64,000 bases of DNA from Candidatus Nomurabacteria bacterium (GTDB taxonomy: Bacteria; Patescibacteriota; Patescibacteriia; HK-STAS-PATE-3), in NCBI GenBank assembly GCA_023898465.1, contig CP060223.1, positions 1,018,587-1,082,586 on the forward strand, in the 5' to 3' direction. Below are positions 1-57,343 of the stretch, piece after piece; the stretch's first letter is position 1; each line of letters starts with the position of its first letter. A model generated the notes under the pieces. It saw nothing but the letters and a program-made list of their open reading frames with translations, had not been told where the DNA came from and did not search any database. The translations under genes were made by a program, and so were the position numbers.

Positions 1-188
1 AAAGATGCCATCAGGTCGAGAACGTGTGCGCTCCCATCAAATTCGAGTAAGCCAAATGCTCCAACTAAAATCCCAGCAACCAAGTAGGCCACTAAGGTAG
101 GTTGACGTAGCACTCGGGCAACGAGTCCGAGAATTGCAGCGAGAACGATGACAAGGGTTACGTCGGCAAATGCAGCAGGCATATACAT
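1..188 (-). CDS. Partial CDS (N-terminus, runs off window): CPA2/Kef-type cation:proton antiporter-like membrane protein
   Basis: Reverse-strand frame starting ATG 186-188 reads MYMPAAFADVTLVIVLAAILGLVARVLRQPTLVAYLVAGILVGAFGLLEFDGS..., a typical N-terminus of monovalent cation/H+ antiporters. The supplied ORF track (37..240) is in a different frame and not protein-like. Confidence 0.5.
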   Translation of the reverse strand, partial: MYMPAAFADVTLVIVLAAILGLVARVLRQPTLVAYLVAGILVGAFGLLEFDGSAHVLDLMAS

Positions 189-196
189 AGTATAAA

Positions 197-238
197 GTGA
201 CAAGTAATAAGTGACAAGTAATAAGTGACAATAGATAC
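197..238. repeat. Tandem 14-nt direct repeat (gtgacaagtaataa x2 plus a degenerate third copy) in the promoter region upstream of the PPIase gene
   Basis: Direct reading: gtgacaagtaataa gtgacaagtaataa gtgacaatagatac. Confidence 0.7.
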
Positions 239-299
239 AAAGCAATTTCTCTTTGTTTACTTGTGAGAAAGGCAAGTTACTTGCTATACTTTTGCTGTT

Positions 300-944
300 A
301 TGTTCACACGTAAAACATTCATTCTTAGCATAAGCGCGCTTGGTCTGCTTGGTTTGATTTTCGCCTTCACTCGTTCCGGGGGAAATGTGAGTGAATCAAA
401 TACCAATACAAGTCGCGTTGAAGGAGTAGCCACTATGTCTAGTCAGCAGGAGAAGCTTGCCCAGTCGCCGACAGCTGTTGTAGAAACAAATTTCGGGACA
501 ATGAAGATTCGCTTTTATGCAGATGATGCGCCAGAGCTAACAAAAAACTTTATTGAGCTAGCCAAGAGCGGGTATTACGATGGATTAACTTTTCATCGGA
601 TTGTCCCGGGTTTTGTTATTCAGGGTGGTGACCCAAATGGTACAGGTACAGGCGGGCATAGCTATAAAGGTGAGGGTCAGGGCTTAGCCGATGAGCCAGG
701 TGCTTTAGCGCTTACGCATGAAGTTGGTGCGGTGGCCTGGGCAAAATCAAGCCTACCGAATTCTATTGGTAGTCAATTCTATATCGCTTTGCAGGAGTTA
801 CCAATGCTTGATGGTGGTTACTCAGTTTTTGGTCAGGTTGTTGAAGGTATGGATGTAGTGCAAAAAGTTGCTGCAGTGCAAACTGATGCCAGTGACATGC
901 CAGTGGATCCGGTGACCATTACAAAAGTAAGCTTGTTAGAATAA
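300..944 (+). CDS. ppiB: Peptidyl-prolyl cis-trans isomerase, cyclophilin type, with N-terminal membrane anchor or signal
   Basis: FHRIVPGFVIQGGDPNGTGTGG cyclophilin signature; hydrophobic N-terminus. Confidence 0.9.
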   Translation: MFTRKTFILSISALGLLGLIFAFTRSGGNVSESNTNTSRVEGVATMSSQQEKLAQSPTAVVETNFGTMKIRFYADDAPELTKNFIELAKSGYYDGLTFHRIVPGFVIQGGDPNGTGTGGHSYKGEGQGLADEPGALALTHEVGAVAWAKSSLPNSIGSQFYIALQELPMLDGGYSVFGQVVEGMDVVQKVAAVQTDASDMPVDPVTITKVSLLE

Positions 945-1041: not shown

Positions 1042-1614
1042 CTACGCTCTCTCGACGTATTCGCCGGTTTCAGTGTTGACGCGGATGACGTCGCCGTTTT
1101 TCACAAATGCCGGGACGCGGATAGTCGCACCAGTTTCCACTTTTGCTTCTTTTAAAACAGCACCTTGGGCAGTATCACCACGGACAGCGTCTGTGGTTTC
1201 TGTTACCGTCAGAGTTAGCTTCATTGGCAATTCAATAGTAACTGGCTTGCCGTTGTAGTTCATGATATCGACATCGAGTCCCTCAGTCATGAATTGCACT
1301 TCGTGTTCGAGTTGTGTTAGGGGGAGGGAGAATTGGTCGTAGCTTTCCGAGTCCATAAACACGCACTGATCGCCCTCGACATAGAGGAAACTTGCTTTGC
1401 CACGGCTAAGATCAGCCCGCTCTACTCGGTCGCCTGACTTAAAGGTCTGCTCGATAACCCGGCCATCCAACAAGTTTTTCAACTTCGTACGCATGTTCGG
1501 CTTACCCTGCGATTTGCGCATGAAGGATGCTTCCACAATCTTATATGGTGCACCACTCCAGTTAATCACCACGCCGAGTTTTAGGTCGGTGAGGTTTTGT
1601 AGAATGTCAGCCAT
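1042..1614 (-). CDS. efp: Elongation factor P
   Basis: Full-length similarity to EF-P (KOW/OB domains; ...KNGDVIRVNTETGEYVERA). Confidence 0.95.
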   Translation of the reverse strand: MADILQNLTDLKLGVVINWSGAPYKIVEASFMRKSQGKPNMRTKLKNLLDGRVIEQTFKSGDRVERADLSRGKASFLYVEGDQCVFMDSESYDQFSLPLTQLEHEVQFMTEGLDVDIMNYNGKPVTIELPMKLTLTVTETTDAVRGDTAQGAVLKEAKVETGATIRVPAFVKNGDVIRVNTETGEYVERA

Positions 1615-1617
1615 ATA

Positions 1618-1842
1618 CTATTGAACCACAAATGGGATAAGCGCCATGAAGCGAGCACGCTTGATTGCTTCGGCCAGGCGTCGCTGGTGCTTCATGCAGA
1701 CACCTGATCGGCGCCGCGGCACAATCTTCCCATATGAAGAAGTGAAACGCTGCAAGAGGCGAGTATCTTTGTAATCAATGTCTTCGATTGCGTTGACGCA
1801 AAAGTGACATGAGTGAGGTTGGATTTTTTGAGTGTTGTTCAT
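1618..1842 (-). CDS. rpsR: 30S ribosomal protein S18
   Basis: CHFC...IDYKD...[27 protein letters not shown]; conserved rpsF-ssb-rpsR cluster. Confidence 0.95.
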
Positions 1843-1843
1843 A

Positions 1844-2284
1844 CTAGAAAGGAATTTCTTCTACATTAATTTCGCCGTCATCAGCTGGGGCCGATTGAGG
1901 AGCACTTGCACCAGCACTGTCCTGTGACGGTGCGCTAGACATCGGGCTTTGGCCAGGTCGGTCAAGCATAATCATATTCTCAGCTACGATTTCTGTTCGG
2001 TTTCGCTTATTGCCTGATGGGTCTTCCCAGTTACGGGTTTGCATGCGACCTTCGATGAAGACGCGGCTACCCTTTTTGAGATATTGACTGCAGGTTTGTG
2101 CTAAACCAGACCAGGCGACAACATTATGGAACTCAGCAGCTTGCTTTCGTTCTCCGCTGTCTCGGTCTTTCCAAGTGCGGTTTGTAGCGACGCCGAATGA
2201 GCAGACTGATTGTCCGTTTGGAGTGTTACGGAGCTCAGGGTCTCGAGTGACGTTGCCGATAATTTGTGCGCGATTGAAATCCAT
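1844..2284 (-). CDS. ssb: Single-stranded DNA-binding protein
   Basis: OB-fold N-terminus; Gly/Ser/Ala-rich linker; acidic C-terminal tail [12 protein letters not shown]. Confidence 0.9.
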
Positions 2285-2296
2285 AGGTGTGTTTGC

Positions 2297-2794
2297 TTAT
2301 TTGATGAGATCTTGTTCAAGGAGCTCGTCGATTTTTTCGTCTAAGTTTTCGAGAGAAGCGCGATCGTCTTCTTTTTCCACCTTGCGAGAAGAGGTGTTTT
2401 CCTCTTTTTCATCGCGTGACTCTTCAGCCTCGCTTTGCGCTTCTGCGCGTCGCTTGGCTTGAATGCGTTCTTGCAATTCCCGCTGGGCTGCTTCCATTTC
2501 TGGAGTGCGGACTGGCAAACGGATAATCTGATGACGTACTAAGTCTTGCTCGAGTCGAAAAATGCGATCGAGCTCAGCTAACTTTGTGCCGTCGATATCA
2601 AGCTCAAGAAGGACATAGAAGCCCTGCTTTAAGTGATTAATCTCATAGGCTAAGCGGCGCTTGCCCATGTTTTCGATTTTGGTGATTTGTCCACCAATAT
2701 CGCTGATGTGCTTTTGCAACGTAGAAGCGTATTGTTCAGCTTCTTCGTCAGTAAAGCGGGGGTTGATGAGGAGGAGTAATTCGTAGTGTTGCAT
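2297..2794 (-). CDS. rpsF: 30S ribosomal protein S6 with a long acidic C-terminal extension
   Basis: MQHYELLLLINPRFTDEEAE...GKRRLAYEI matches S6. True start is the internal Met (cat at 2792-2794); the upstream 40 codons of the track ORF look non-coding. Confidence 0.9.
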   Translation of the reverse strand: MQHYELLLLINPRFTDEEAEQYASTLQKHISDIGGQITKIENMGKRRLAYEINHLKQGFYVLLELDIDGTKLAELDRIFRLEQDLVRHQIIRLPVRTPEMEAAQRELQERIQAKRRAEAQSEAEESRDEKEENTSSRKVEKEDDRASLENLDEKIDELLEQDLIK

Positions 2795-3102
2795 ATGCTG
2801 AATTAAGAATATCGCACGGATGGCGGACCCGGGCGATGTAGACTTAGCTATATCGTGCGGGGGCCCTTGAGGGGTAATCCTTACTTCGCATAGAGCTCGA
2901 AGGACTGTCCGCAATCTCGTTGTAAAAGCACCCTAACACAGGGTTATTTTTTTGGCAAGGGTAGAGAAAGTAAAGCACGAAACTCCAAATACAAGGCTCT
3001 AAACAAATTCTAAATCCAAAACATTTACTAAATAGACTGAATTTAGGTCATTGAAATTTCTTATTTGTTTGGATATTCGATATTAGTATTTAGAATTTAT
3101 CT

Positions 3103-4335
3103 ATGAGACTGTGCTACACTTCTCCTATGCCCCAGTATTACTTTATTCTTGGTAAAAACCCGAAGCTCTCTTTAGCAGAGCTAGACCAAGCCCTGCAGAC
3201 TCGTGCCATTACCAGCGAAGTGGTGGCTCGTGCTTCTGACTACTGTATTTTGGAGACCAAAGAAGAGTTAAATCTGGTGGAGTTATTGCAGCACTTGGGA
3301 GGTACACTGAAGGCAGGGCAAATACTTGAAGGGCTTTCTTCACGAGATGAAGTACAAAGTATCTGCGCAAATGTAGATTGGGCAGAGAAAAAACTACCGC
3401 TCACAAAACATCGGGCAGAATTTGGTATAAGCGTCTACGGGACAAAAAAGTCTGGACCCTTAAGTAAGCGCTATGGTCTAGGTTTAAAAAAAGCATTGCA
3501 GTCAATTGGACATTCTGTGCGGATGATTTTTGATCCAAGCGGCCAACTCAGCAGTGTTACCGTAGCAAAGAATGGATTACTGAGTAAGGGTTTTGAGCTT
3601 TGCGTGTTAGAAAGTGCCACTCAACATTGGCTTGGACTTAGTCAGGCAGTGCAATCATTCCGCAAGTTTAGTGAGCGGGATTATGGCCGACCTGACCGTG
3701 ATGCGCGCAATGGCATGCTTCCGCCAAAGTTGGCACTCATGATGCTTAATATTGCGGGCGCAAAAAGCGGAAGCGTCGTGCTCGATCCTTTTTGTGGATC
3801 AGGTACTGTACTGCAAGAAGCACTTTTGCTGGGATGCAAAAAAGTTTATGGTTCGGATATTAGCGAGAAGGCGGTAAAAGATTCGCAAAATAATGTACAG
3901 TGGCTTAGTACGCAGGAGAAGTCGATTGGCACTGTGCAGATACGTAAAGTTGACGCTCGTCAGCTGCGTCCTACCTATGTCGCAGAGTCGGTTGATGTGA
4001 TTGTGACCGAGCCAGACCTTGGTCCGCCGCGACCGGCGCGTAACGAGGAGCAAATAGAAGAACGACGACAAGAAGCCATTGCTTTGTATCGATCTTTCTT
4101 ATCATCAGCGACCAAGGTGTTGAAGGCAAACGGTCGGGTGGTTATGGCTTGGCCCGTTTGGTCTCTGCAGGATACTCGTTATCACTTGCATCCAAAGAAA
4201 ATACTACCAGACGGCTGGACACTACTTTGGCCCTATGGTGATCTAGTATCGCAGGATGGTGAAAAGACCTTGCTCTATGAGCGACCAGGTCAGTTTGTAG
4301 CTCGTGAGATTGTGATACTCTCCCCAAATAAATAG
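3103..4335 (+). CDS. Putative SAM-dependent methyltransferase (UPF0020/Trm11/RlmL-like amino-methyltransferase fold), substrate unknown
   Basis: Motif I VLDPFCGSGTVLQEA; acidic D/E ...SDISEKA; motif IV-like VTEPDLGPP. Confidence 0.6.
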   Translation: MRLCYTSPMPQYYFILGKNPKLSLAELDQALQTRAITSEVVARASDYCILETKEELNLVELLQHLGGTLKAGQILEGLSSRDEVQSICANVDWAEKKLPLTKHRAEFGISVYGTKKSGPLSKRYGLGLKKALQSIGHSVRMIFDPSGQLSSVTVAKNGLLSKGFELCVLESATQHWLGLSQAVQSFRKFSERDYGRPDRDARNGMLPPKLALMMLNIAGAKSGSVVLDPFCGSGTVLQEALLLGCKKVYGSDISEKAVKDSQNNVQWLSTQEKSIGTVQIRKVDARQLRPTYVAESVDVIVTEPDLGPPRPARNEEQIEERRQEAIALYRSFLSSATKVLKANGRVVMAWPVWSLQDTRYHLHPKKILPDGWTLLWPYGDLVSQDGEKTLLYERPGQFVAREIVILSPNK

Positions 4336-4405
4336 CCTTGACATTGATGTCGGCATTACTTATGTTGGCAGTGTTTGTTGCACCTTAAAGAGGAGGGAAG
4401 AGTCG

Positions 4406-4975: not shown

Positions 4976-5030
4976 TAGCTAGTATAGCGCGTTCCTATAC
5001 GACTGCAAGTGGATAGCGTACAATGCACAT

Positions 5031-5717
5031 ATGTCAGAACGATTACAGAAATTTATTGCCCGTTCGAGTCAGTATTCGCGACGCCGAGCTGAGGAGCTCA
5101 TGAAAAGCGGTGTGGTAAAAGTAAACGGCCAGGTTATTCGCCAACTCGGCACCAGTGTAAATCCAGAAGAAGACGTGGTGGAGGTGCTTGGTAAGAGGGT
5201 GAATCCAGAAACGCGGATCCGCTACATAGTTGTACATAAGCCGCGCGGGTATGTGTGTACACGGGCGCGTCATGCAAAAGAAAAAACAGTCTACGACCTT
5301 GTGCCAAATAGTCGAGACCTGGTGATTGCTGGGCGCTTGGACAAAGAGTCAGAGGGTCTCGTACTACTCACCAATGATGGCGCATTAGTGCAGCAGCTGA
5401 CCCATCCTAGTTACCAGCATGAGAAAGAATACGAAGTAGTAACTGCGCAGCGAATCACTGATGCTCATATTGCCAAACTGCTTCGTGGAGTGCCGCTTAA
5501 GGAAGGTTTGGCAAAAGCGGATAAAGTACAACGAATAAGTGAGAAGAAAATAAGACTAGTACTTCATCAAGGTTGGAAACGGCAAATTCGTCGTATGTGT
5601 GAAGTGATTGGCTTAAGCGTATTGCGATTGAAGCGAATTCGCATGGGGAGTCTGAAGCTTGATACACTTGAACTTGGCGCATCCCGCGGTGTGAAAAGGG
5701 ATGACTTTTTAAGTTAG
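5031..5717 (+). CDS. Pseudouridine synthase, RsuA/RluB family, with N-terminal S4 RNA-binding domain
   Basis: S4 domain (RLQKFIARSSQYSRRRAEELMKSGVVKVNG), VVHKPRGYVCT, AGRLDKESEGLVLLTNDG catalytic-Asp motif. Confidence 0.85.
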   Translation: MSERLQKFIARSSQYSRRRAEELMKSGVVKVNGQVIRQLGTSVNPEEDVVEVLGKRVNPETRIRYIVVHKPRGYVCTRARHAKEKTVYDLVPNSRDLVIAGRLDKESEGLVLLTNDGALVQQLTHPSYQHEKEYEVVTAQRITDAHIAKLLRGVPLKEGLAKADKVQRISEKKIRLVLHQGWKRQIRRMCEVIGLSVLRLKRIRMGSLKLDTLELGASRGVKRDDFLS

Positions 5718-5812
5718 ATATTGTTGAAGAAAAAGCATTGTAACAGCTGCTTGTCTATTTTTTTGCTATGTGTTAAAAAAGGGAATGGATCTTTTCAACC
5801 TGGAGGTGAGTT

Positions 5813-8935: not shown

Positions 8936-9454
8936 TTAGTATGGGATCGAATCAATCAAAGAGTAGTTAGCATTTACAAAATCTTTATAGCTTGACCACG
9001 GCCAGTCCTCAGGTTTATTTACCAACCCATCCCTCACTGGATTATAATGAATATAGTTCACGTGATGATTTAGATCTTGTTGGTCACGGATGATGTGGTC
9101 GTAAAATGATTTTTGCCAAATAAATTTCGTAGATAGCCGAGGATGATCATCCTCGGCTATGAGGTGTGGATATATAATATTAATACTCCTTGAAATGTTT
9201 CTTTTTAGGCAATGCATAAGATCAGAAATATTACTTTCATAACGAGGCCGTAACAAAAAATGTGCATGATCATGCATTACAACATACGCGTATAGATAAT
9301 AAGGTTGGATATTTTTTGTTATTTGGAGTCGGGAGATAACAATATTCGCAAGATGAGAATCTTTGAAGAAGGGAATTCTATTGTGAGTTACAATTGTGAC
9401 AAAATATATTCCATCCGGAATATAGATTCGTTTAAGCTTACTAATAAACAACAT
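8936..9454 (-). mobile_element. IS200/IS605-family Y1 (REP-associated tyrosine transposase-like) transposase gene, very AT-rich
   Basis: HxH motif (MHDHAHFLL) and catalytic Tyr region (FYDHIIRDQQD...YIHYNPVRDGLVN...DWPWSSY) typical of the Y1_Tnp family; GC of about 32% against about 58% flanks. Confidence 0.8.
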
Positions 9455-18232: not shown

Positions 18233-18322
18233 AGCTCAAGTGTAGCACGCTTGCGAATCTCTGCACTTCGCGCTACCTTAGGGCATGTCTGCCTACGCGA
18301 AGCCGCTTTGGCAGACGGGCAC

Positions 18323-18408
18323 GCCGGAGTGGTGAAATGGCAGACACGCCAGGTTTAGGACCTGGTGGGAGCAATCCCGTGGAGGTTCAAGTCCTCTCTC
18401 CGGCACCA
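18323..18408 (+). tRNA. tRNA-Leu (anticodon TAG), long variable arm, CCA encoded
   Basis: Acceptor gccggag/ctccggc; anticodon stem ccagg/cctgg with loop ttTAGga; T-loop ttcaagt; 3' acca. Confidence 0.85.
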
Positions 18409-18415
18409 CGGCCCA

Positions 18416-18475
18416 TCGCGGGCTGCGGCTTCCGTAGATTCAAACAAGTTGAATCTACGGAAGCCTCCACCCGCG
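18416..18475 (+). other. Long near-perfect hairpin (17-bp perfect core ggcttccgtagattcaa / ttgaatctacggaagcc, extended by gcggg..cccgc) immediately 3' of tRNA-Leu
   Basis: Direct inspection; part of the tRNA-associated repeated element. Confidence 0.7.
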
Positions 18476-18584
18476 TGTGCCTCTTCGTCTCGCGCTTAAC
18501 CCTTCGGGCCCAAGTCTTGAATATACATACAAAACAAGGTCAGCGCGCTGCTGGCCTCTTTCTTTTTCCCGTAATGTGAGCGCA

Positions 18585-19310
18585 CTACGCTTTGGCGAGC
18601 GTATCGTCCTTCTTATCCTCACTCTCCTTTGTTGCTGTTTCTTTCATTTCAGCAAAGTGTGCATCTAGGAATCGATTCAGGGCAGTACGGAGAGCGTTGG
18701 CCTGCGGTTTTGCTTCAAAGATTTTTACAATATCCTCTTTTACCTCCGCCCAAAGTTCCTTACTTACCTGGGACTCATATCGCAAAATATCTGGCAACGC
18801 ATTTTTTTGCCAACTGATTAGAGCGCGACCGCTTCGATTTTTTTCACTTAACTCATCGCGCAATCGCATGAGCTCATTGCGTAATTCACTTCGATAATAG
18901 CGACGATGAATGCGTCGGTGGCGTTCGTCCTTCAGCACGCTGAAAAGGAAGAGAAGCAACCAACCTGCGCCAAGTAGCACCACGCCAAAGAGTAGTGCTT
19001 GGAGCCAGCCAGCGCCAACCATTTCCATGAGGGTGGTTGAGAAGAGGAAGGAAAATCCTGCCACAATCATAGCTAGGCCATTTCGGGTAGCCCGACGTTC
19101 CGCTAAAAGATTCACAGCCGCAAAGGGATTCTGGCCATAGAATCCGCGTGTCTCATCTTCAATCTGTTGAGGAGATTTTACCAAACTGAAACTGAGGAGA
19201 ATACCTCCGATAAACTGCATGCCAAGTCCGATAAGTTGCAGTGCTTCCATAACAATAGTATAGCGATTTTTTATTGAGAACCCAAATGCGCTATACTGCA
19301 AATGAGACAT
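18585..19310 (-). CDS. Hypothetical membrane protein (2-3 TM N-terminal, charged coiled C-terminal half)
   Basis: Hydrophobic segments followed by an RR/E-rich region; no recognisable family. Confidence 0.45.
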   Translation of the reverse strand: MSHLQYSAFGFSIKNRYTIVMEALQLIGLGMQFIGGILLSFSLVKSPQQIEDETRGFYGQNPFAAVNLLAERRATRNGLAMIVAGFSFLFSTTLMEMVGAGWLQALLFGVVLLGAGWLLLFLFSVLKDERHRRIHRRYYRSELRNELMRLRDELSEKNRSGRALISWQKNALPDILRYESQVSKELWAEVKEDIVKIFEAKPQANALRTALNRFLDAHFAEMKETATKESEDKKDDTLAKA

Positions 19311-20601: not shown

Positions 20602-21116
20602 TCCTCAGGCCCTTTCACAACTGGAATATCGAGATATAAAGCTGGTCGACAGCACGCTGTCCATCAACTTTGTACCTTGAATTGTCGAGAGGGAGTTAGC
20701 CAGCTGGCTATATGGGACGTGGTCCCTGACGCTTGAGCTGACCCGGTCTAATGCTGACCCCTTTCGCTGTTGCGCCAGACTATCGGATTTCGGCAGTGGA
20801 TCCATCCCCGGGAAAAACTCTGAAAACCTCTCTAGTCCGGCGTAACTCTTCGACTGCACTGCAACACCCCTCCTTATGTTGGCTGGTAGTTCCAAATCCC
20901 ATCCTTCCTAAAGACGTGTTGCAGTGCAGTCCCTTTTTCTCCCTTGAACTGATGCGGGAATGACTCGATCTCGATTGTGTCGTTCCCGTGTCTGCTCAAG
21001 GCATGAACCTTGAAAACTGAATGATGATGCGGATAACCCAAATATCTACACATGTTAGTTAGTAAGTTAGTTTAGTTAGTGTTTCGTAACGGAAGAATTC
21101 TTAATTCTAACGTTAC

Positions 21117-24203
<3,087 letters not shown>

Positions 24204-24451
24204 AACATTAGAGTTTGGAATAACGAATGCAACAAACATTGACATTCGAGTTATTCCGCGTCATCATTCTTTGCAGCTATGGAAAGACTTAAGCAATTTC
24301 GTGTCAGTCTGAGTCTGATTATCCTCGGATTGGTAGTAACGGCCTTTGTTGGAATCGTTTTAGCCGTCTCGCCAGCCACGTTAATTGGTCCACAATAGTC
24401 CTATTCATGAGGGGCCGGTGGGTAGTAATTCGTCCTAGGCGGATTACTAGC

Positions 24452-24568
24452 CTCCGGTGCTTCAAGCGATGAGGTCACACCCGATCCCATTCCGAACTCG
24501 GTCGTTAAGCTCATCAGCGCTGATGATACTACGGGGCATACCGTTGGGAAAGTAAGCCAGTGCCGGTT
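24452..24568 (+). rRNA. rrf: 5S ribosomal RNA
   Basis: ...cacccgatcccattccgaactcggtcgttaagctcatcagcgctgatgatactacgggg... with terminal helix ccggtgc/gtgccgg; T-rich terminator follows at 24575-24615. Confidence 0.85.
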
Positions 24569-25936: not shown

Positions 25937-27685
25937 ATGACACCAACAACGCAAAGGAAAGCAAATACAGGACAACATCGACGACGTCGACGATCCCGCA
26001 ATCAAACAGCACCGGGACAGTCTTCTCCAAAGCTACGCCTGATACCCCTGGGTGGCATGGAAGAAGTTGGGCGAAATTCGATGATTTTAGAGTATGGGAA
26101 AGATATTCTCATTATTGATTTGGGCTTGCAGTTTCCTGAGGAGGATATGCCGGGCGTGGATTATAGTATCCCAAATATTTCCTACCTCAAGGGCAAGGAA
26201 AAAAATGTACGAGGAATTCTCATCACGCATGGTCATTATGACCACATTGGAGGCGTGCCACATTTAGTGCATAAGTTAGGTAACCCAACCATTTACGGAT
26301 CAGACCTTACTCTGGCGTTAATAAAGAAGAAGCAGGAAGATATCAACCCGCAGCACAAGCTGCGTTTAGTAACGGTAAAGAAAGATACGAAGTTAAAAAT
26401 TGGCCCTTTCCGTATTGAGTTTGTAGGCCTGTCTCATAATATCCCTGCTAGCTTTGGTATTATCATACATACCCCCCTCGGCCCAGTGATGCACACGGGT
26501 GATTTTAAGATTGACCATAAGGGTGGCTATCGCAACGAGACTGATATTCAAAAAATCGAGCGTTTGAAAAAAATGCGGATGTTGGCGCTCATGTGTGATT
26601 CAACCAATGCCCCACATCAAGGCCATCAACTTTCTGAGAGTGAAATTACTCAGAACCTAGAAGAAATGTTTAAGCGAGCAAAAGGACGCATAATTTTTGC
26701 TACTTTTGCATCTTTGCTTACTCGCATTCAGCAGATTGTGTGGCTGGCCGAGAAGCACAATCGTAAAGTGCAGGTTGAAGGCTTCAGCATGCGTACTAAT
26801 ATTGAGATTGCGAAACAGCTAGGCTATCTCAAGTCAAAAAAAAACACTTTTGTGAAAGATAAGGAAGCAGCGAAATTGCCCGACAGTCGCCGTGTGATTC
26901 TTTCCACCGGCGCGCAAGGTGAAGAGCGGGCAGTGTTGATGCGTATGGCAAACGGCGAACATAAGTATTTGAAAATCCAAAAAGGCGACCTAGTCGTATT
27001 TTCATCTTCCGTGGTGCCGGGGAATGAGCGGGCAGTGCAGCGCTTAAAGGATGGACTCTTCCGCGAAGGTGCAGATGTATATGACAACCAGATGCTCGAT
27101 ATTCACGCTGGCGGTCATGCCAAAAGCGAGGATCTTCGCTGGTTCATCCGCACGATTCGACCGCAGTACTTTATTCCTATTGAAGGCAATCACTCTTTCC
27201 TACGCATGAACGCACGCTACGCTATGGAGGAGGGCATGGCCGAGGATCACGTCTTAGTCGCTGATAACGGTCAGGTGATTGAATTTACGAAGCAAGGTGG
27301 CAAGTTGACCAAGGAATATGTCCCAACCGATCATGTTTTTGTGGATGGCTTAGGCGTGGGCGATGTTTCTCATGTGGTGCTCCGTGATCGTAAGCATTTA
27401 TCAGCCGACGGCATGGTGTTGATTGTAGCGACTGTCGATGGTCGGACTGGTCGGCCCCTTGGGAAGCCCGACATTATTACGCGAGGTTTTATTTTCCCAC
27501 AAAGCAATCAACAGTTGTTGAATGAAATTCGTAAGACGGTGCAGGGTGAGCTCAAAGACACCGAGCCAAAGACTCAGGCAAATGAAGCTGATTTGCGCAA
27601 TAAAATTCGTAAGGCATTAGAAAAGCTCATCTTCAAGCGCATTGAGCGCACGCCAATGATTTTGCCAGTAATCATAGTGACCTAG
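25937..27685 (+). CDS. rnj: Ribonuclease J (metallo-beta-lactamase/beta-CASP RNase)
   Basis: ITHGHYDHIGG zinc-binding motif, beta-CASP and C-terminal domains. Confidence 0.95.
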   Translation: MTPTTQRKANTGQHRRRRRSRNQTAPGQSSPKLRLIPLGGMEEVGRNSMILEYGKDILIIDLGLQFPEEDMPGVDYSIPNISYLKGKEKNVRGILITHGHYDHIGGVPHLVHKLGNPTIYGSDLTLALIKKKQEDINPQHKLRLVTVKKDTKLKIGPFRIEFVGLSHNIPASFGIIIHTPLGPVMHTGDFKIDHKGGYRNETDIQKIERLKKMRMLALMCDSTNAPHQGHQLSESEITQNLEEMFKRAKGRIIFATFASLLTRIQQIVWLAEKHNRKVQVEGFSMRTNIEIAKQLGYLKSKKNTFVKDKEAAKLPDSRRVILSTGAQGEERAVLMRMANGEHKYLKIQKGDLVVFSSSVVPGNERAVQRLKDGLFREGADVYDNQMLDIHAGGHAKSEDLRWFIRTIRPQYFIPIEGNHSFLRMNARYAMEEGMAEDHVLVADNGQVIEFTKQGGKLTKEYVPTDHVFVDGLGVGDVSHVVLRDRKHLSADGMVLIVATVDGRTGRPLGKPDIITRGFIFPQSNQQLLNEIRKTVQGELKDTEPKTQANEADLRNKIRKALEKLIFKRIERTPMILPVIIVT

Positions 27686-31309: not shown

Positions 31310-31801
31310 ACTTGAGCCCTTCTTTCGAAGTGTGAATCTTCCTATGTCCCATCCATGGGACGCGAACGAAACGTAGAGCAGGCTCTACTAAAGGAATTTC
31401 AGTGTCATTCGACCTCCACAGCTAGCTCCCAATTCCCCCAGTTTCCTCGGATGAACACTCCTTCGATTGAAGGATGAAAAAGGCGAGGTGAGTCTCTACA
31501 TGTTCACTCGGACACAGATAGCAGAGTGTGCTGACGGGTGAGGGCTCAAGCTAACCCAGTCAGTCACAATGCTACCGTGCCGTTTCCTTAGAACAGTCTA
31601 CAGAGAGACTCACCTCAGATCGGTAGTTTGAGATTGCGAAAGAGCAATCGAACTGTACGCACAAAAATAGCCCCTATTTGGGCTTTTGTCAAGACTATAG
31701 CGATAGTAAAAAATTTCCTGGAGCGGGTAGCTCCCGCAATTCAGCGGGATAAAGTCCATCGAACCCGCACTGTATGTAAGTATTTCTCCTTACGTCCTCT
31801 G

Positions 31802-31872
31802 AGCGGGTGAGGGGAATCGAACCCCTGGCATCAGCTTGGAAAGCTGAGGTATTACCACTATACGACACCCGC
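31802..31872 (-). tRNA. tRNA-Gly (anticodon TCC), CCA not encoded
   Basis: Reverse complement gcgggtg tc gtat agtggtaat acc tcagc ttTCCaa gctga ... ggggttcgattcccc t cacccgc. Confidence 0.85.
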
Positions 31873-35112: not shown

Positions 35113-35187
<75 letters not shown>

Positions 35188-35202: not shown

Positions 35203-35279
35203 GCGGGTGTAGTTCAGTTGGCTAGAACGTCTCCTTGCCAAGGAGAAGGTCGGCGGTTCGAATCCGCTCACCCGCTCCA
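35203..35279 (+). tRNA. tRNA-Gly (anticodon GCC), CCA encoded
   Basis: Acceptor gcgggtg/cacccgc; anticodon stem tctcc/ggaga with loop ttGCCaa; T-loop ggttcgaat. Confidence 0.85.
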
Positions 35280-35527
35280 CGGGCCATCACTTACTGCGGG
35301 CTCCGTGAAGACAAATACATTGTCCTCACTGCGCCCTTCGCAAGGATGTCCCTTTACGCCTCAGACTTAACCCTGCGGGCCCAAGTCTTCGGCGTTTGAG
35401 CAGAGAAAGAGCTTAATTTCATATCCTGTTGGCGGACCACTTCGACCCCTTGTGCATTGAAGAAACCTTTTTGTTTTTTTGATGTGCGTTTGTTATAGTA
35501 AAAAAGTCTCAATTAATATCAATGTAA

Positions 35528-56728: not shown

Positions 56729-56754
56729 CCGCCCAAGCTCAATGCTTGGGCTAC
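56729..56754. repeat. REP-like palindromic element (ccgcccaagc-tcaat-gcttgggctac), copy 1, 3' of the RAYT gene
   Basis: 8-bp stem / 5-nt loop hairpin; identical 26-mer to copy 2. Confidence 0.8.
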
Positions 56755-56785
56755 TAGCGTAGGCGAAGTATTACTCTTTGCTGTG

Positions 56786-57265
56786 TCAAAGGAAATCAGG
56801 ATTATCTAAATGAATCGGTTCATTGAGACTAAGATATCGAGCCTTAGCTGAAGACCAAGGATAGTCTGTTGCTTCATTCACCAATCCTGATTGAACAGGG
56901 TTGTGATGAATATAAGCCGCTTTATTATTGTAGTCATTTTGATCCCGTATAATATGATCATGAAAACCATGCTGAATAAGTTGTCCGGATTTATTTTTTC
57001 TAATATTCCATTCCCGCGAAAATCTTCCATTGAGATGTCGTAGGGTGTTGCTAATCGAGCCATCTTTTGATGGACAAATAATGAGATGGTAATGATCAGG
57101 CATGAGCACGAATTCGTATATGCGAATCCCGTAGCGGACACGCAGTTGTATGAGAATGTTCAAAAAAATATTACAAGCAGTTTCGGAAAGGAATATATTG
57201 CGCCGCTTGTGCATGACCACAGTTACAAAGAAAGGGAGATAATAGATGTCTAGGCGCTTTTTCAT
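56786..57265 (-). mobile_element. IS200/IS605-family Y1 transposase (REP-associated tyrosine transposase, RAYT-like)
   Basis: HxH (MPDHYHLII) and Tyr region (FHDHIIRDQNDYNNKAAYIHHNPVQSGLVN..DYPWSS); flanked both sides by identical REP hairpins. Confidence 0.8.
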
Positions 57266-57273
57266 ATCAAACT

Positions 57274-57343
57274 CCGCCCAAGCTCAATGCTTGGGCTACG
57301 TAAAAATGTAATTCTCTGCGCAGGCGAAGAATTGATCTTCGCC
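57274..57343. repeat. REP-like palindromic element, copy 2 (identical 26-mer), plus a second hairpin ggcgaaga-attga-tcttcgcc, 5' of the RAYT gene
   Basis: ccgcccaagctcaatgcttgggctac at 57274-57299; ggcgaagaattgatcttcgcc at 57323-57343. Confidence 0.8.

Follow-up and report, generated by a model that had tools for sequence, protein, structure and literature searches.

Escherichia coli tRNA 3′ external transcribed spacer RNAs include 3′ETS-leuZ and the RtT RNA, which comes from the tyrT trailer (Rfam RF00391). The genomes of Patescibacteria are small, about 1 Mb, with very little noncoding DNA, and we know of almost nothing that has been reported on RNA processing in them. In the archaeon Methanopyrus kandleri, the palindrome CGTTA(N)9TAACG lies about 10 bp downstream of approximately half of the tRNA genes, and its authors speculated that it is a signal for 3′ maturation (PMC5217627). 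We analyzed a 64,000-nucleotide stretch of a Candidatus Nomurabacteria genome (assembly GCA_023898465.1, contig CP060223.1, positions 1,018,587 to 1,082,586; "the window" below), in which a module of about 115 nt follows the genes for tRNA-Leu(TAG) (copy A) and tRNA-Gly(GCC) (copy B). Read from its 5′ end, it starts with a lead-in, continues with H1, a long imperfect hairpin, and ends, past a linker rich in pyrimidines, with another hairpin, H2. This is a previously uncatalogued two-hairpin module tied to tRNA ends in some Patescibacteria.

The window was searched with the Rfam 15 covariance models, as the initial annotation had proposed. At the gathering thresholds only rRNA and tRNA matched, and the module matched no family. 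Under relaxed thresholds (E ≤ 10 for positions 18300 to 18600, E ≤ 5 for three of the loci described below, L004, L012, and L019), it received only chance-level hits to miRNA, isrD, and YrlA families, none exceeding 20 bits and all far under threshold. Full-text literature searches turned up no account of an element of this kind in Patescibacteria.

ARAGORN identified four tRNA genes in the window, namely, tRNA-Leu(TAG), tRNA-Gly(TCC), tRNA-Cys(GCA), and tRNA-Gly(GCC) (Table 1). Copies A and B both begin at the base after the encoded CCA, and in both a 24-mer, CTTAACCCT(T/G)CGGGCCCAAGTCTT, starts about 87 nt 3′ of it. The 24-mer had been noted in the initial annotation as a shared 3′ block. 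Its two occurrences are the sole matches in the window even with up to three mismatches allowed, 100 shuffles yielded none, and the T/G difference between them falls in an apical loop. Overall, copies A and B are 63% identical. The first half of the 5′ block proposed along with the 24-mer also holds, as CCA is followed by CGGCCCATC in one copy and CGGGCCATC in the other, with CGG(C/G)CCATC in common. Its second half, gcgggct(g/c)cg, is present in both copies, starting 10 nt past CCA in copy A and 18 nt past it in copy B; it falls in different helix segments of the structural alignment and is therefore not positionally homologous.

We then scanned metagenome contigs for TTAACCCNNNGGGCCCAAGT and obtained 12 loci. 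Nine were matches inside coding or unrelated sequence, and in the remaining three the motif adjoined tRNA genes, with whole modules present. One of these contigs (L004) has a module behind each of two tandem tRNA-Met genes. The first copy, L004_1, lies between the two co-oriented genes, and the second, L004_2, carries a 35-nt hairpin inserted in the H2 loop. In L012 the module is located 3′ of tRNA-Glu(CTC). In L014 one copy (L014_1) follows tRNA-Thr(GGT), and an inverted copy (L014_2) exactly abuts G1, the 5′ end, of tRNA-Tyr; the inverted pair exactly fills the gap between the two tRNA genes, while the other copies are single.

Additional loci (L016 to L019) were reached through homologues of Lgt, which is encoded next to the tRNA-Leu gene of the window and whose relatives all belong to Patescibacteria, also called the candidate phyla radiation (CPR). 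L019, with an Lgt 98% identical to that of the window, has its module behind a different tRNA-Leu(TAG) allele. In L016, L017, and L018 (Lgt 52% identical) the module is preceded by a remnant ending in GCACCA, and an intact tRNA-Leu gene lies 2.9 kb upstream. In total, we obtained nine independent copies, all at a tRNA end and seven of them outside the window. Eight (A, B, both L004 copies, L012, L014_1, L019, and L016) begin directly after CCA in the orientation of the tRNA, their partners being Leu, Gly, Met (twice), Thr, Glu, and the Leu 3′ remnant; the ninth is inverted at Tyr. The copies have 39 to 58% G+C, the host DNA retrieved has 33 to 49%, and they form G+C-rich islands in hosts of 33 to 44%. 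The motif thus recurs at tRNA genes in unrelated contigs of other Patescibacteria, which supports the family associated with tRNA 3′ ends that had been suggested from the two window copies. With seven further copies on other CPR contigs, a local duplication within the window does not account for the similarity.

Three other observations touch on these loci. Just upstream of the L019 tRNA-Leu(TAG) gene (185 to 345, minus strand), whose acceptor sequence is GGGCGAG and that of the window GCCGGAG, lies a remnant of the 5′ part of the window-type tRNA, broken by a 26-nt hairpin, and past H2 a second, partial linker and H2-like unit runs off the contig. The trailers of the L014 tRNA-Tyr and tRNA-Thr(TGT) genes (5017 to 5095 and 5735 to 5790) contain family-like fragments, GGGCCAAGC and ATACATTGTCCT, the latter also found in copy B H1; they may be decayed or divergent copies, and the covariance model described below does not detect them. 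Finally, the low-coverage contig L003 (895 to 924, read on the minus strand) is the same as the window to the right of the 24-mer, and the sequence to its left, ..GCAGCGGGGCCCCCTAGAAGAC, differs from the window and would restore the lower H2 stem. It is most likely an assembly join through the repeat, although a third copy or a strain variant could also account for it, and it was not used as evidence.

The nine copies allowed us to define the architecture of the module. The lead-in is about 10 nt long and differs between lineages. H1 is a helix of about 20 bp in which single mismatches recur at regular intervals. Covariation is seen in its outer stem (for instance, CGCGGG/CCCGCG versus CCGTG/CACGG); four copies have ACAAG as the apical loop of H1, and the remaining copies have other loops. 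Copy A H1 has the outer stem CGCGGG/CCCGCG, an internal loop CU-G-C/U-C-CA, and a 17-bp perfect apical stem, GGCTTCCGTAGATTCAA/TTGAATCTACGGAAGCC, closed by ACAAG; this perfect hairpin had been recognized from the start and lies within 27-nt arms (18417 to 18443 and 18449 to 18475). The linker is single stranded, 12 to 16 nt long, with the consensus UGYCCCUUU..CUC.

The core of H2, CUUA(R)-YCC...GGR-CCCAAG, is nearly invariant, and its lower and outer stems covary freely. The outer stem (4 to 5 bp) occurs as CGCC/GGCG, CAAC/GTTG, CGTC/GACG, or AACC/GGTT, and five copies have a UC/UC mismatch. The lower stem terminates in an invariant CUU/AAG, followed by an asymmetric loop, A(R) opposite CC(C), then by a covarying top stem of 3 to 4 bp (CCC/GGG, TCC/GGA, TCT/AGA, or CCCC/GGGG) and an apical loop of 3 to 35 nt. 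In copy B, H2 reads ACGCC-UC-AGACUU-AA-CCC-UGC-GGG-CCC-AAGUCU-UC-GGCGU. The stem gactt/aagtc that had been drawn around a ccc-NNN-ggg mini-hairpin forms in this copy; in copy A only its ctt/aag part pairs. A pseudoknot between GG at positions +2 and +3 after CCA and the CCC of the H2 core is possible in six of the nine copies.

Alignment of eight copies with MAFFT and RNAalifold returned the two hairpins, with 27 of 32 pairs keeping their pairing through changes on both sides. In an alignment guided by a covariance model of the family (R1), 86.4% of the cells were paired compared with 64.4% after shuffling (none of 500 shuffles reached the observed value) and 28 to 46% when the partner was slid, and double, compensatory changes were found in 28 of the 32 pairs. 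The module family is real, far beyond chance, and evolutionarily constrained.

The same model scored the nine copies at 69 to 116 bits. With filters off, the next best match in the window reached 12.6 bits, and over approximately 476 kb (the window plus the loci) no other full-length match exceeded about 19 bits. The only other matches, near 29 bits, were incomplete copy A-type H2 sequences at contig ends (L002 and L003). An 11-bit match behind a protein gene in L050 appeared by eye to be a rearranged relative, with the lead-in CGGGTCATCGCG, CU-rich linkers, and different hairpins. No new copy was found in 20 plus 12 loci near rpmG and lgt in other CPR lineages, and no homologues of the protein flanking the L004 copies were found. 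A motif scan of one genome per species, in which the source genome was not included, gave only a Poribacteria site that scored 13 bits in the model and was taken as chance. Viral contigs (two pattern scans) and phage and plasmid records (blastn) yielded no module.

The reading of its role that we favor, tentatively, is a structured 3′ trailer: module and tRNA would share one transcript, from which a stable RNA would be set free, and the module would have spread among tRNA loci. The tRNA promoter would drive the module as a 3′ external transcribed spacer, and it would be cut from the tRNA within the short single-stranded lead-in at 3′ maturation. It might then persist as a stable by-product, because a hairpin at either end would shield it from RNase J, a 5′ exonuclease, and from 3′ exonucleases; the protection of hairpin ends rests on what is known of RNase J, a gene for which is present in the window (25937 to 27685). 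A conserved partner, protein or RNA, would make contact with the invariant H2 core and with the linker. Over evolution, the module would have been copied between tRNA loci and its segments reshuffled by recombination.

The putative co-transcription is in keeping with the tRNA orientation of eight of the nine copies, with the terminator-like hairpin and T-run that follow copy A, and with the position of L004_1 between co-oriented tRNA-Met genes. The hairpin behind copy A has a T-rich run on the minus strand as well and may also serve the convergent gene. T-runs also stand behind H2 in L019 (GGTTTTTG) and L014_2 (TTTTTGTTTTTT), and not in copy B, L004_2, L012, or L016. Since no promoter-like sequence was seen directly upstream of tRNA-Tyr in L014, the transcript from tRNA-Thr probably runs through both module copies there. 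Three other candidates were considered and rejected. The helix order does not fit an HDV-like, hatchet, or other ribozyme cutting after CCA, and none was matched in Rfam; no convincing pairing was seen by eye for a leader-trailer processing stem around tRNA-Leu; and the boxA-like sequence upstream of the 23S rRNA gene, AACCTTGAAAACTGAA (21007 to 21022), is unlike the linkers UGUGCCUCUUC and AUGUCCCUUUACG, which argues against a boxB/boxA antiterminator.

Several observations weigh against this reading. The transcription of the tRNA strand, the strand used, the cleavage, the stability of the product, and the existence of a partner are all steps that we infer. In all nine copies the reverse complement is more stable as RNA (sums of −498.7 versus −400.3 kcal/mol), and the consensus energies are −40.3 kcal/mol for the reverse strand and −26.5 kcal/mol for the tRNA strand. 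On the tRNA strand, 76% of the unpaired bases are pyrimidines (C 138, U 130, A 60, G 23), an unusual composition for a structured RNA. The L014_2 copy stands inverted at the 5′ end of a tRNA gene, and in copy A the lower and outer stems of H2 are degenerate, the lower stem being broken. The module is dispensable. It was not found at any tRNA gene, those for tRNA-Trp and tRNA-Tyr among them, across 200 kb of other CPR loci, nor at the orthologous tRNA-Leu(TAG) locus of L025, L049, and L050, and most of it has been exchanged between two strains with 98% Lgt identity. The strand features look more like those of a typical structured RNA on the opposite strand, with no consistent promoter there. 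A co-transcribed trailer leaves unexplained both the better folding of the complementary strand and the quick turnover of the copies.

The first of these points leads to a serious rival, although we hold it to be less likely than the trailer, namely, that the functional molecule is the complementary strand, as an RNA transcribed toward the tRNA gene or as single-stranded DNA. As an RNA, it would have its 3′ end set at the neighboring cloverleaf, an antisense tRNA or, in L014, the sense tRNA-Tyr. Besides its lower energies, the reverse strand is the more stable in 17 of 18 comparisons made hairpin by hairpin (H1 or H2), and its H2 z-scores are about −4.3 versus about −2.7 for the tRNA strand. 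Purines make up 78% of its unpaired positions (A 149, G 121, C 39, U 39), and purine-rich unpaired bases are the usual make-up of structured RNAs. The "internal loop" of H2 becomes, on that strand, an invariant G·U pair (8/8), a second position occupied by G·U, G-C, or C-G, and one bulged G, and the UC/UC mismatch becomes a tandem GA/GA. The inverted L014 copy lies directly upstream of tRNA-Tyr, which would place both in the same transcript direction, and a promoter-like TTGATA-16-TACTAT faces copy B on the minus strand (35522 to 35495).

On the other side, no promoter-like site adjoins H2 of copy A on the reverse strand, none was seen there by eye in the A+T-rich L014 and L012 loci, and the terminator-like hairpin stands between copy A and the convergent gene. 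Eight of the nine copies would be transcribed head-on into a tRNA gene, and in L004 the unit repeats between co-oriented tRNAs. Counts of G·U versus A·C in the aligned helices (12 versus 18 cells) are not decisive. A small open reading frame on the reverse strand, with a Shine-Dalgarno-like AAAGGGG 5 nt before a GUG, was discarded, as its GUG falls within the covarying H1 outer stem and is GCG in copy A and L019, and the peptides of 5 to 19 amino acids are not conserved. A more specific version, which we consider unlikely, is that the module marks tRNA gene boundaries on the opposite strand, either as an RNA with a 3′ end defined by RNase P at an antisense or sense tRNA or as mobile single-stranded DNA homing to exact tRNA ends. 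We know of no bacterial precedent for either a boundary-marking opposite-strand RNA or a single-stranded DNA element homing to tRNA ends.

Slightly less probable than the complementary strand, in our estimate, is a selfish element without a host role, resembling repetitive extragenic palindromic (REP) sequences, bacterial interspersed mosaic elements (BIMEs), or miniature inverted-repeat transposable elements (MITEs), that found safe sites at tRNA boundaries and whose hairpins were kept because a transposase or recombinase reads them. The turnover and mosaicism of the copies are its main support. Relative to the window, L019 has retained the lead-in and the first part of the linker; its H1 has only 45% identity, and the changes in its H2 are compensatory. 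Copy A H1 is nevertheless 72% identical to that of L004_1, and L004_2 H1 is 89% identical to that of L016, while copies from one genome have lead-ins and lower H2 stems in common. This pattern argues for copying and recombination among tRNA loci. The variable presence of the module at the orthologous tRNA-Leu locus, the L014 inverted pair, the degenerate relative that L050 carries behind a protein gene, and the presence in the window of two Y1 transposase genes of the IS200 type all fit with such an element.

However, we saw neither terminal inverted repeats, target-site duplications, nor near-identical copies, and the copies are tied to tRNA genes rather than dispersed. There is no known bacterial mechanism that targets the exact tRNA boundary. 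The compensatory evolution and the invariant loop bases, in hosts with 33 to 49% G+C, point to long-term constraint. The hairpins flanking one of the Y1 genes differ in sequence from the module, and the covariance model with filters off found nothing significant near either gene. The initial annotation had linked the module with the hairpin at 56.7 kb through gcccaag; this 7-mer occurs 15 times in the window compared with 9.4 expected, and 5 of 100 shuffles reached 15, so that the sharing is at chance level, and the link was rejected. That hairpin is instead the terminal hairpin of what looks like a separate, minimal IS200-like unit (56729 to 57299).

The tRNA-Leu(TAG) locus of the relatives is also a site of insertions. 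In L016 a diversity-generating retroelement (DGR; 1254 to 4405), with genes for a reverse transcriptase (2192 to 2878) and bAvd (2887 to 3237) and 132-nt template and variable repeats (3280 to 3411 and 3844 to 3975), is bounded by 143-nt inverted repeats (1347 to 1489 and 4120 to 4262), and GCACCA is present at both junction regions. In L025 (8408 to 9928) the tRNA-Leu 3′ end is overlapped by a large serine recombinase gene, as is the tRNA-Trp 3′ end in L032 (2360 to 4090), and tandem 3′-end remnants of both tRNA-Leu alleles are present in L050 (3100 to 3282) and L049 (3240 to 3333). In the window, the open reading frames flanking the copies encode Lgt, SHMT, a phosphorylase, and proteins without a Pfam match; the 3′-end 16-mer of tRNA-Leu is unique, and the tRNA-Gly(GCC) 3′ end has no downstream repeat. 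An att-type recombination site, or the leftover arm of elements integrating at tRNA 3′ ends, is highly improbable: it would account for this integration hot spot in the relatives, for the recombinase gene in L025 and the remnants in L049 and L050, for a DGR cassette lying exactly between CCA and the module, for the replaced tRNA allele of L019, and for the chimeric look of the lower H2 stem of copy A, but among the flanking frames scanned in the window there is no integrase or recombinase gene near either copy, neither tRNA 3′ end recurs there as a direct repeat, loop insertions of 25 to 35 nt are tolerated by the H2 core and would not be by a recombinase core site, the DGR insertion lies outside H1 and H2, and in L004 the 115-nt unit is found between adjacent tRNAs with no cargo.

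We thus place the co-transcribed trailer first, followed by an RNA or single-stranded DNA of the complementary strand, then by a selfish repeat, and last, far behind in plausibility, by an att-type site. The features of the two window copies and the tRNA genes are listed in Table 1.

Table 1 Coordinates of the tRNA genes and of the features of copies A and B in the window
Feature	Position	Strand	Basis and remarks
tRNA-Leu(TAG), encoded CCA	18323-18408	+	ARAGORN; Rfam tRNA 55.9 bits; copy A from the next base on
Copy A 5′ lead-in CGGCCCAT	18409-18416	+	Lineage specific; identical in L019, 80% identical in copy B
Copy A hairpin H1	18417-18475	+	Inverted repeat, folds, consensus pairs
Copy A single-stranded pyrimidine-rich linker UGUGCCUCUUC	18476-18486	+	Alignments
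Copy A hairpin H2	18487-18524	+	Core CTTAACCC-TTC-GGGCCCAAG intact; 24-mer 18495-18518
Terminator-like hairpin and CTTTCTTTTT	18537-18567	+	Right after copy A; 12 nt past the end of H2 (18524)
tRNA-Gly(TCC), no encoded CCA, no module	31801-31872	−	ARAGORN
tRNA-Cys(GCA), no module	35113-35187	+	ARAGORN, Rfam; 15 nt before tRNA-Gly(GCC)
tRNA-Gly(GCC), encoded CCA	35203-35279	+	ARAGORN, Rfam; last of the pair, copy B next
Copy B 5′ lead-in CGGGCCATCACTTAC	35280-35294	+	Alignment
Copy B hairpin H1	35295-35342	+	GGGC/GCCC, GTGA/TCAC, GACAA/TTGTC, loop ATACA; folds, consensus pairs
Copy B pyrimidine-rich linker AGGAUGUCCCUUU	35343-35355	+	Alignments
Copy B hairpin H2, complete	35356-35395	+	24-mer 35366-35389

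Other features of the window were noted in passing. The Y1 transposase gene of the IS200-like unit (56786 to 57265, minus strand, Pfam Y1_Tnp) is flanked on both sides, in direct orientation, by the identical 26-nt hairpin CCGCCCAAGCTCAATGCTTGGGCTAC (56729 to 56754 and 57274 to 57299). A second Y1_Tnp gene (8936 to 9454, minus strand), whose product is 36% identical to the first, had no matching flanking hairpins that we could see. About 35 nt downstream of tRNA-Gly(TCC) (31719 to 31872, minus strand, including the gene) lies a tRNA-like remnant, gcgggttcgat...gcgggagctacccgctcca, composed of a T-arm-like piece and a mini-helix ending in TCCA, which resembles a tRNA-Gly 3′ end. The 23S and 5S rRNA genes (21117 to 24568) have no 16S gene upstream, i.e., the rRNA genes are unlinked. 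The 23S match is 3,087 nt long for a model of 2,925 positions and therefore contains inserted sequence, and the 23S-5S spacer holds an open reading frame for a hydrophobic protein of 39 amino acids (24279 to 24398). The 23S leader has a 15-bp perfect long-range stem, GACTGCACTGCAACA (20852 to 20866) with TGTTGCAGTGCAGTC (20917 to 20931), followed by GTCCCTTTTTCTCCC (within 20852 to 20943), which resembles the pyrimidine-rich linker of copy B, GTCCCTTTACGCCTC.

If the module acts as an RNA, it would represent a lineage-specific step of tRNA 3′ maturation or a small RNA riding on tRNA promoters. As mobile DNA, it would have no known forerunner among bacterial elements in targeting tRNA gene boundaries at single-base precision. 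Either way, the covariance model can be put to use at once in surveying CPR genomes and in mapping metatranscriptomes.

GOLLD and ROOL RNAs are also found near tRNAs; they are several-fold larger and unrelated. As with integron attC sites, every unit of an array has at its 3′ end an imperfect hairpin in which certain unpaired or bulged bases are conserved and the length of the terminal loop varies widely. Unlike attC, the module lacks the complementary RYYYAAC/GTTRRRY cores: the 5′ arm reads (A/G)CTTAAC in six of the nine copies, yet its AAC faces an unpaired CCC, and the 3′ arm reads CCCAAGT. We also saw no integron integrase, and where an integron has promoterless cassettes, the units here are tRNA genes.

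The module has in common with REP sequences and BIMEs, which are associated with Y1 transposases of the RAYT (REP-associated tyrosine transposase) type, that it is an extragenic imperfect palindrome with conserved mismatches and a species-specific sequence at the 3′ ends of transcription units, and Y1 transposase genes are present in the window; inverted pairs, which REP sequences form at times, were represented by the single pair in L014. It differs from them in having no GTAG-type tetranucleotide, in being much longer and bipartite, and in its location only at tRNA ends. The dispersal of REP sequences was not observed, as the 64-kb window has two copies, both behind tRNAs, and the approximately 476 kb searched gave no further full-length match above about 19 bits. 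Nor does it resemble a MITE, since its ends (the lead-in and H2) are unrelated and no flanking duplications are visible. The degenerate REP or MITE family initially envisaged therefore finds no support in the features that define these elements.

Like the E. coli spacer RNAs 3′ETS-leuZ and RtT, the module lies directly downstream of a tRNA in what may be the same transcription unit and would be released by 3′ processing, and the RtT unit is also repeated, as is the module. It matches neither in sequence or structure (cmscan, even at E ≤ 10). The E. coli trailers are single-locus RNAs, whereas the module family follows at least five types of tRNA (Leu, Gly, Met, Thr, and Glu) in several lineages. 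With the M. kandleri palindrome it shares a lineage-restricted occurrence, conservation, and a fixed short distance past many, although not all, tRNA genes (PMC5217627). That element is archaeal and a single short palindrome of about 19 nt, whereas the module is 115 nt long and combines two hairpins and a linker with stems that covary and a core that is asymmetric and invariant. By analogy, the palindrome of M. kandleri is the nearest published parallel that we found and may serve as a partial precedent for the module.

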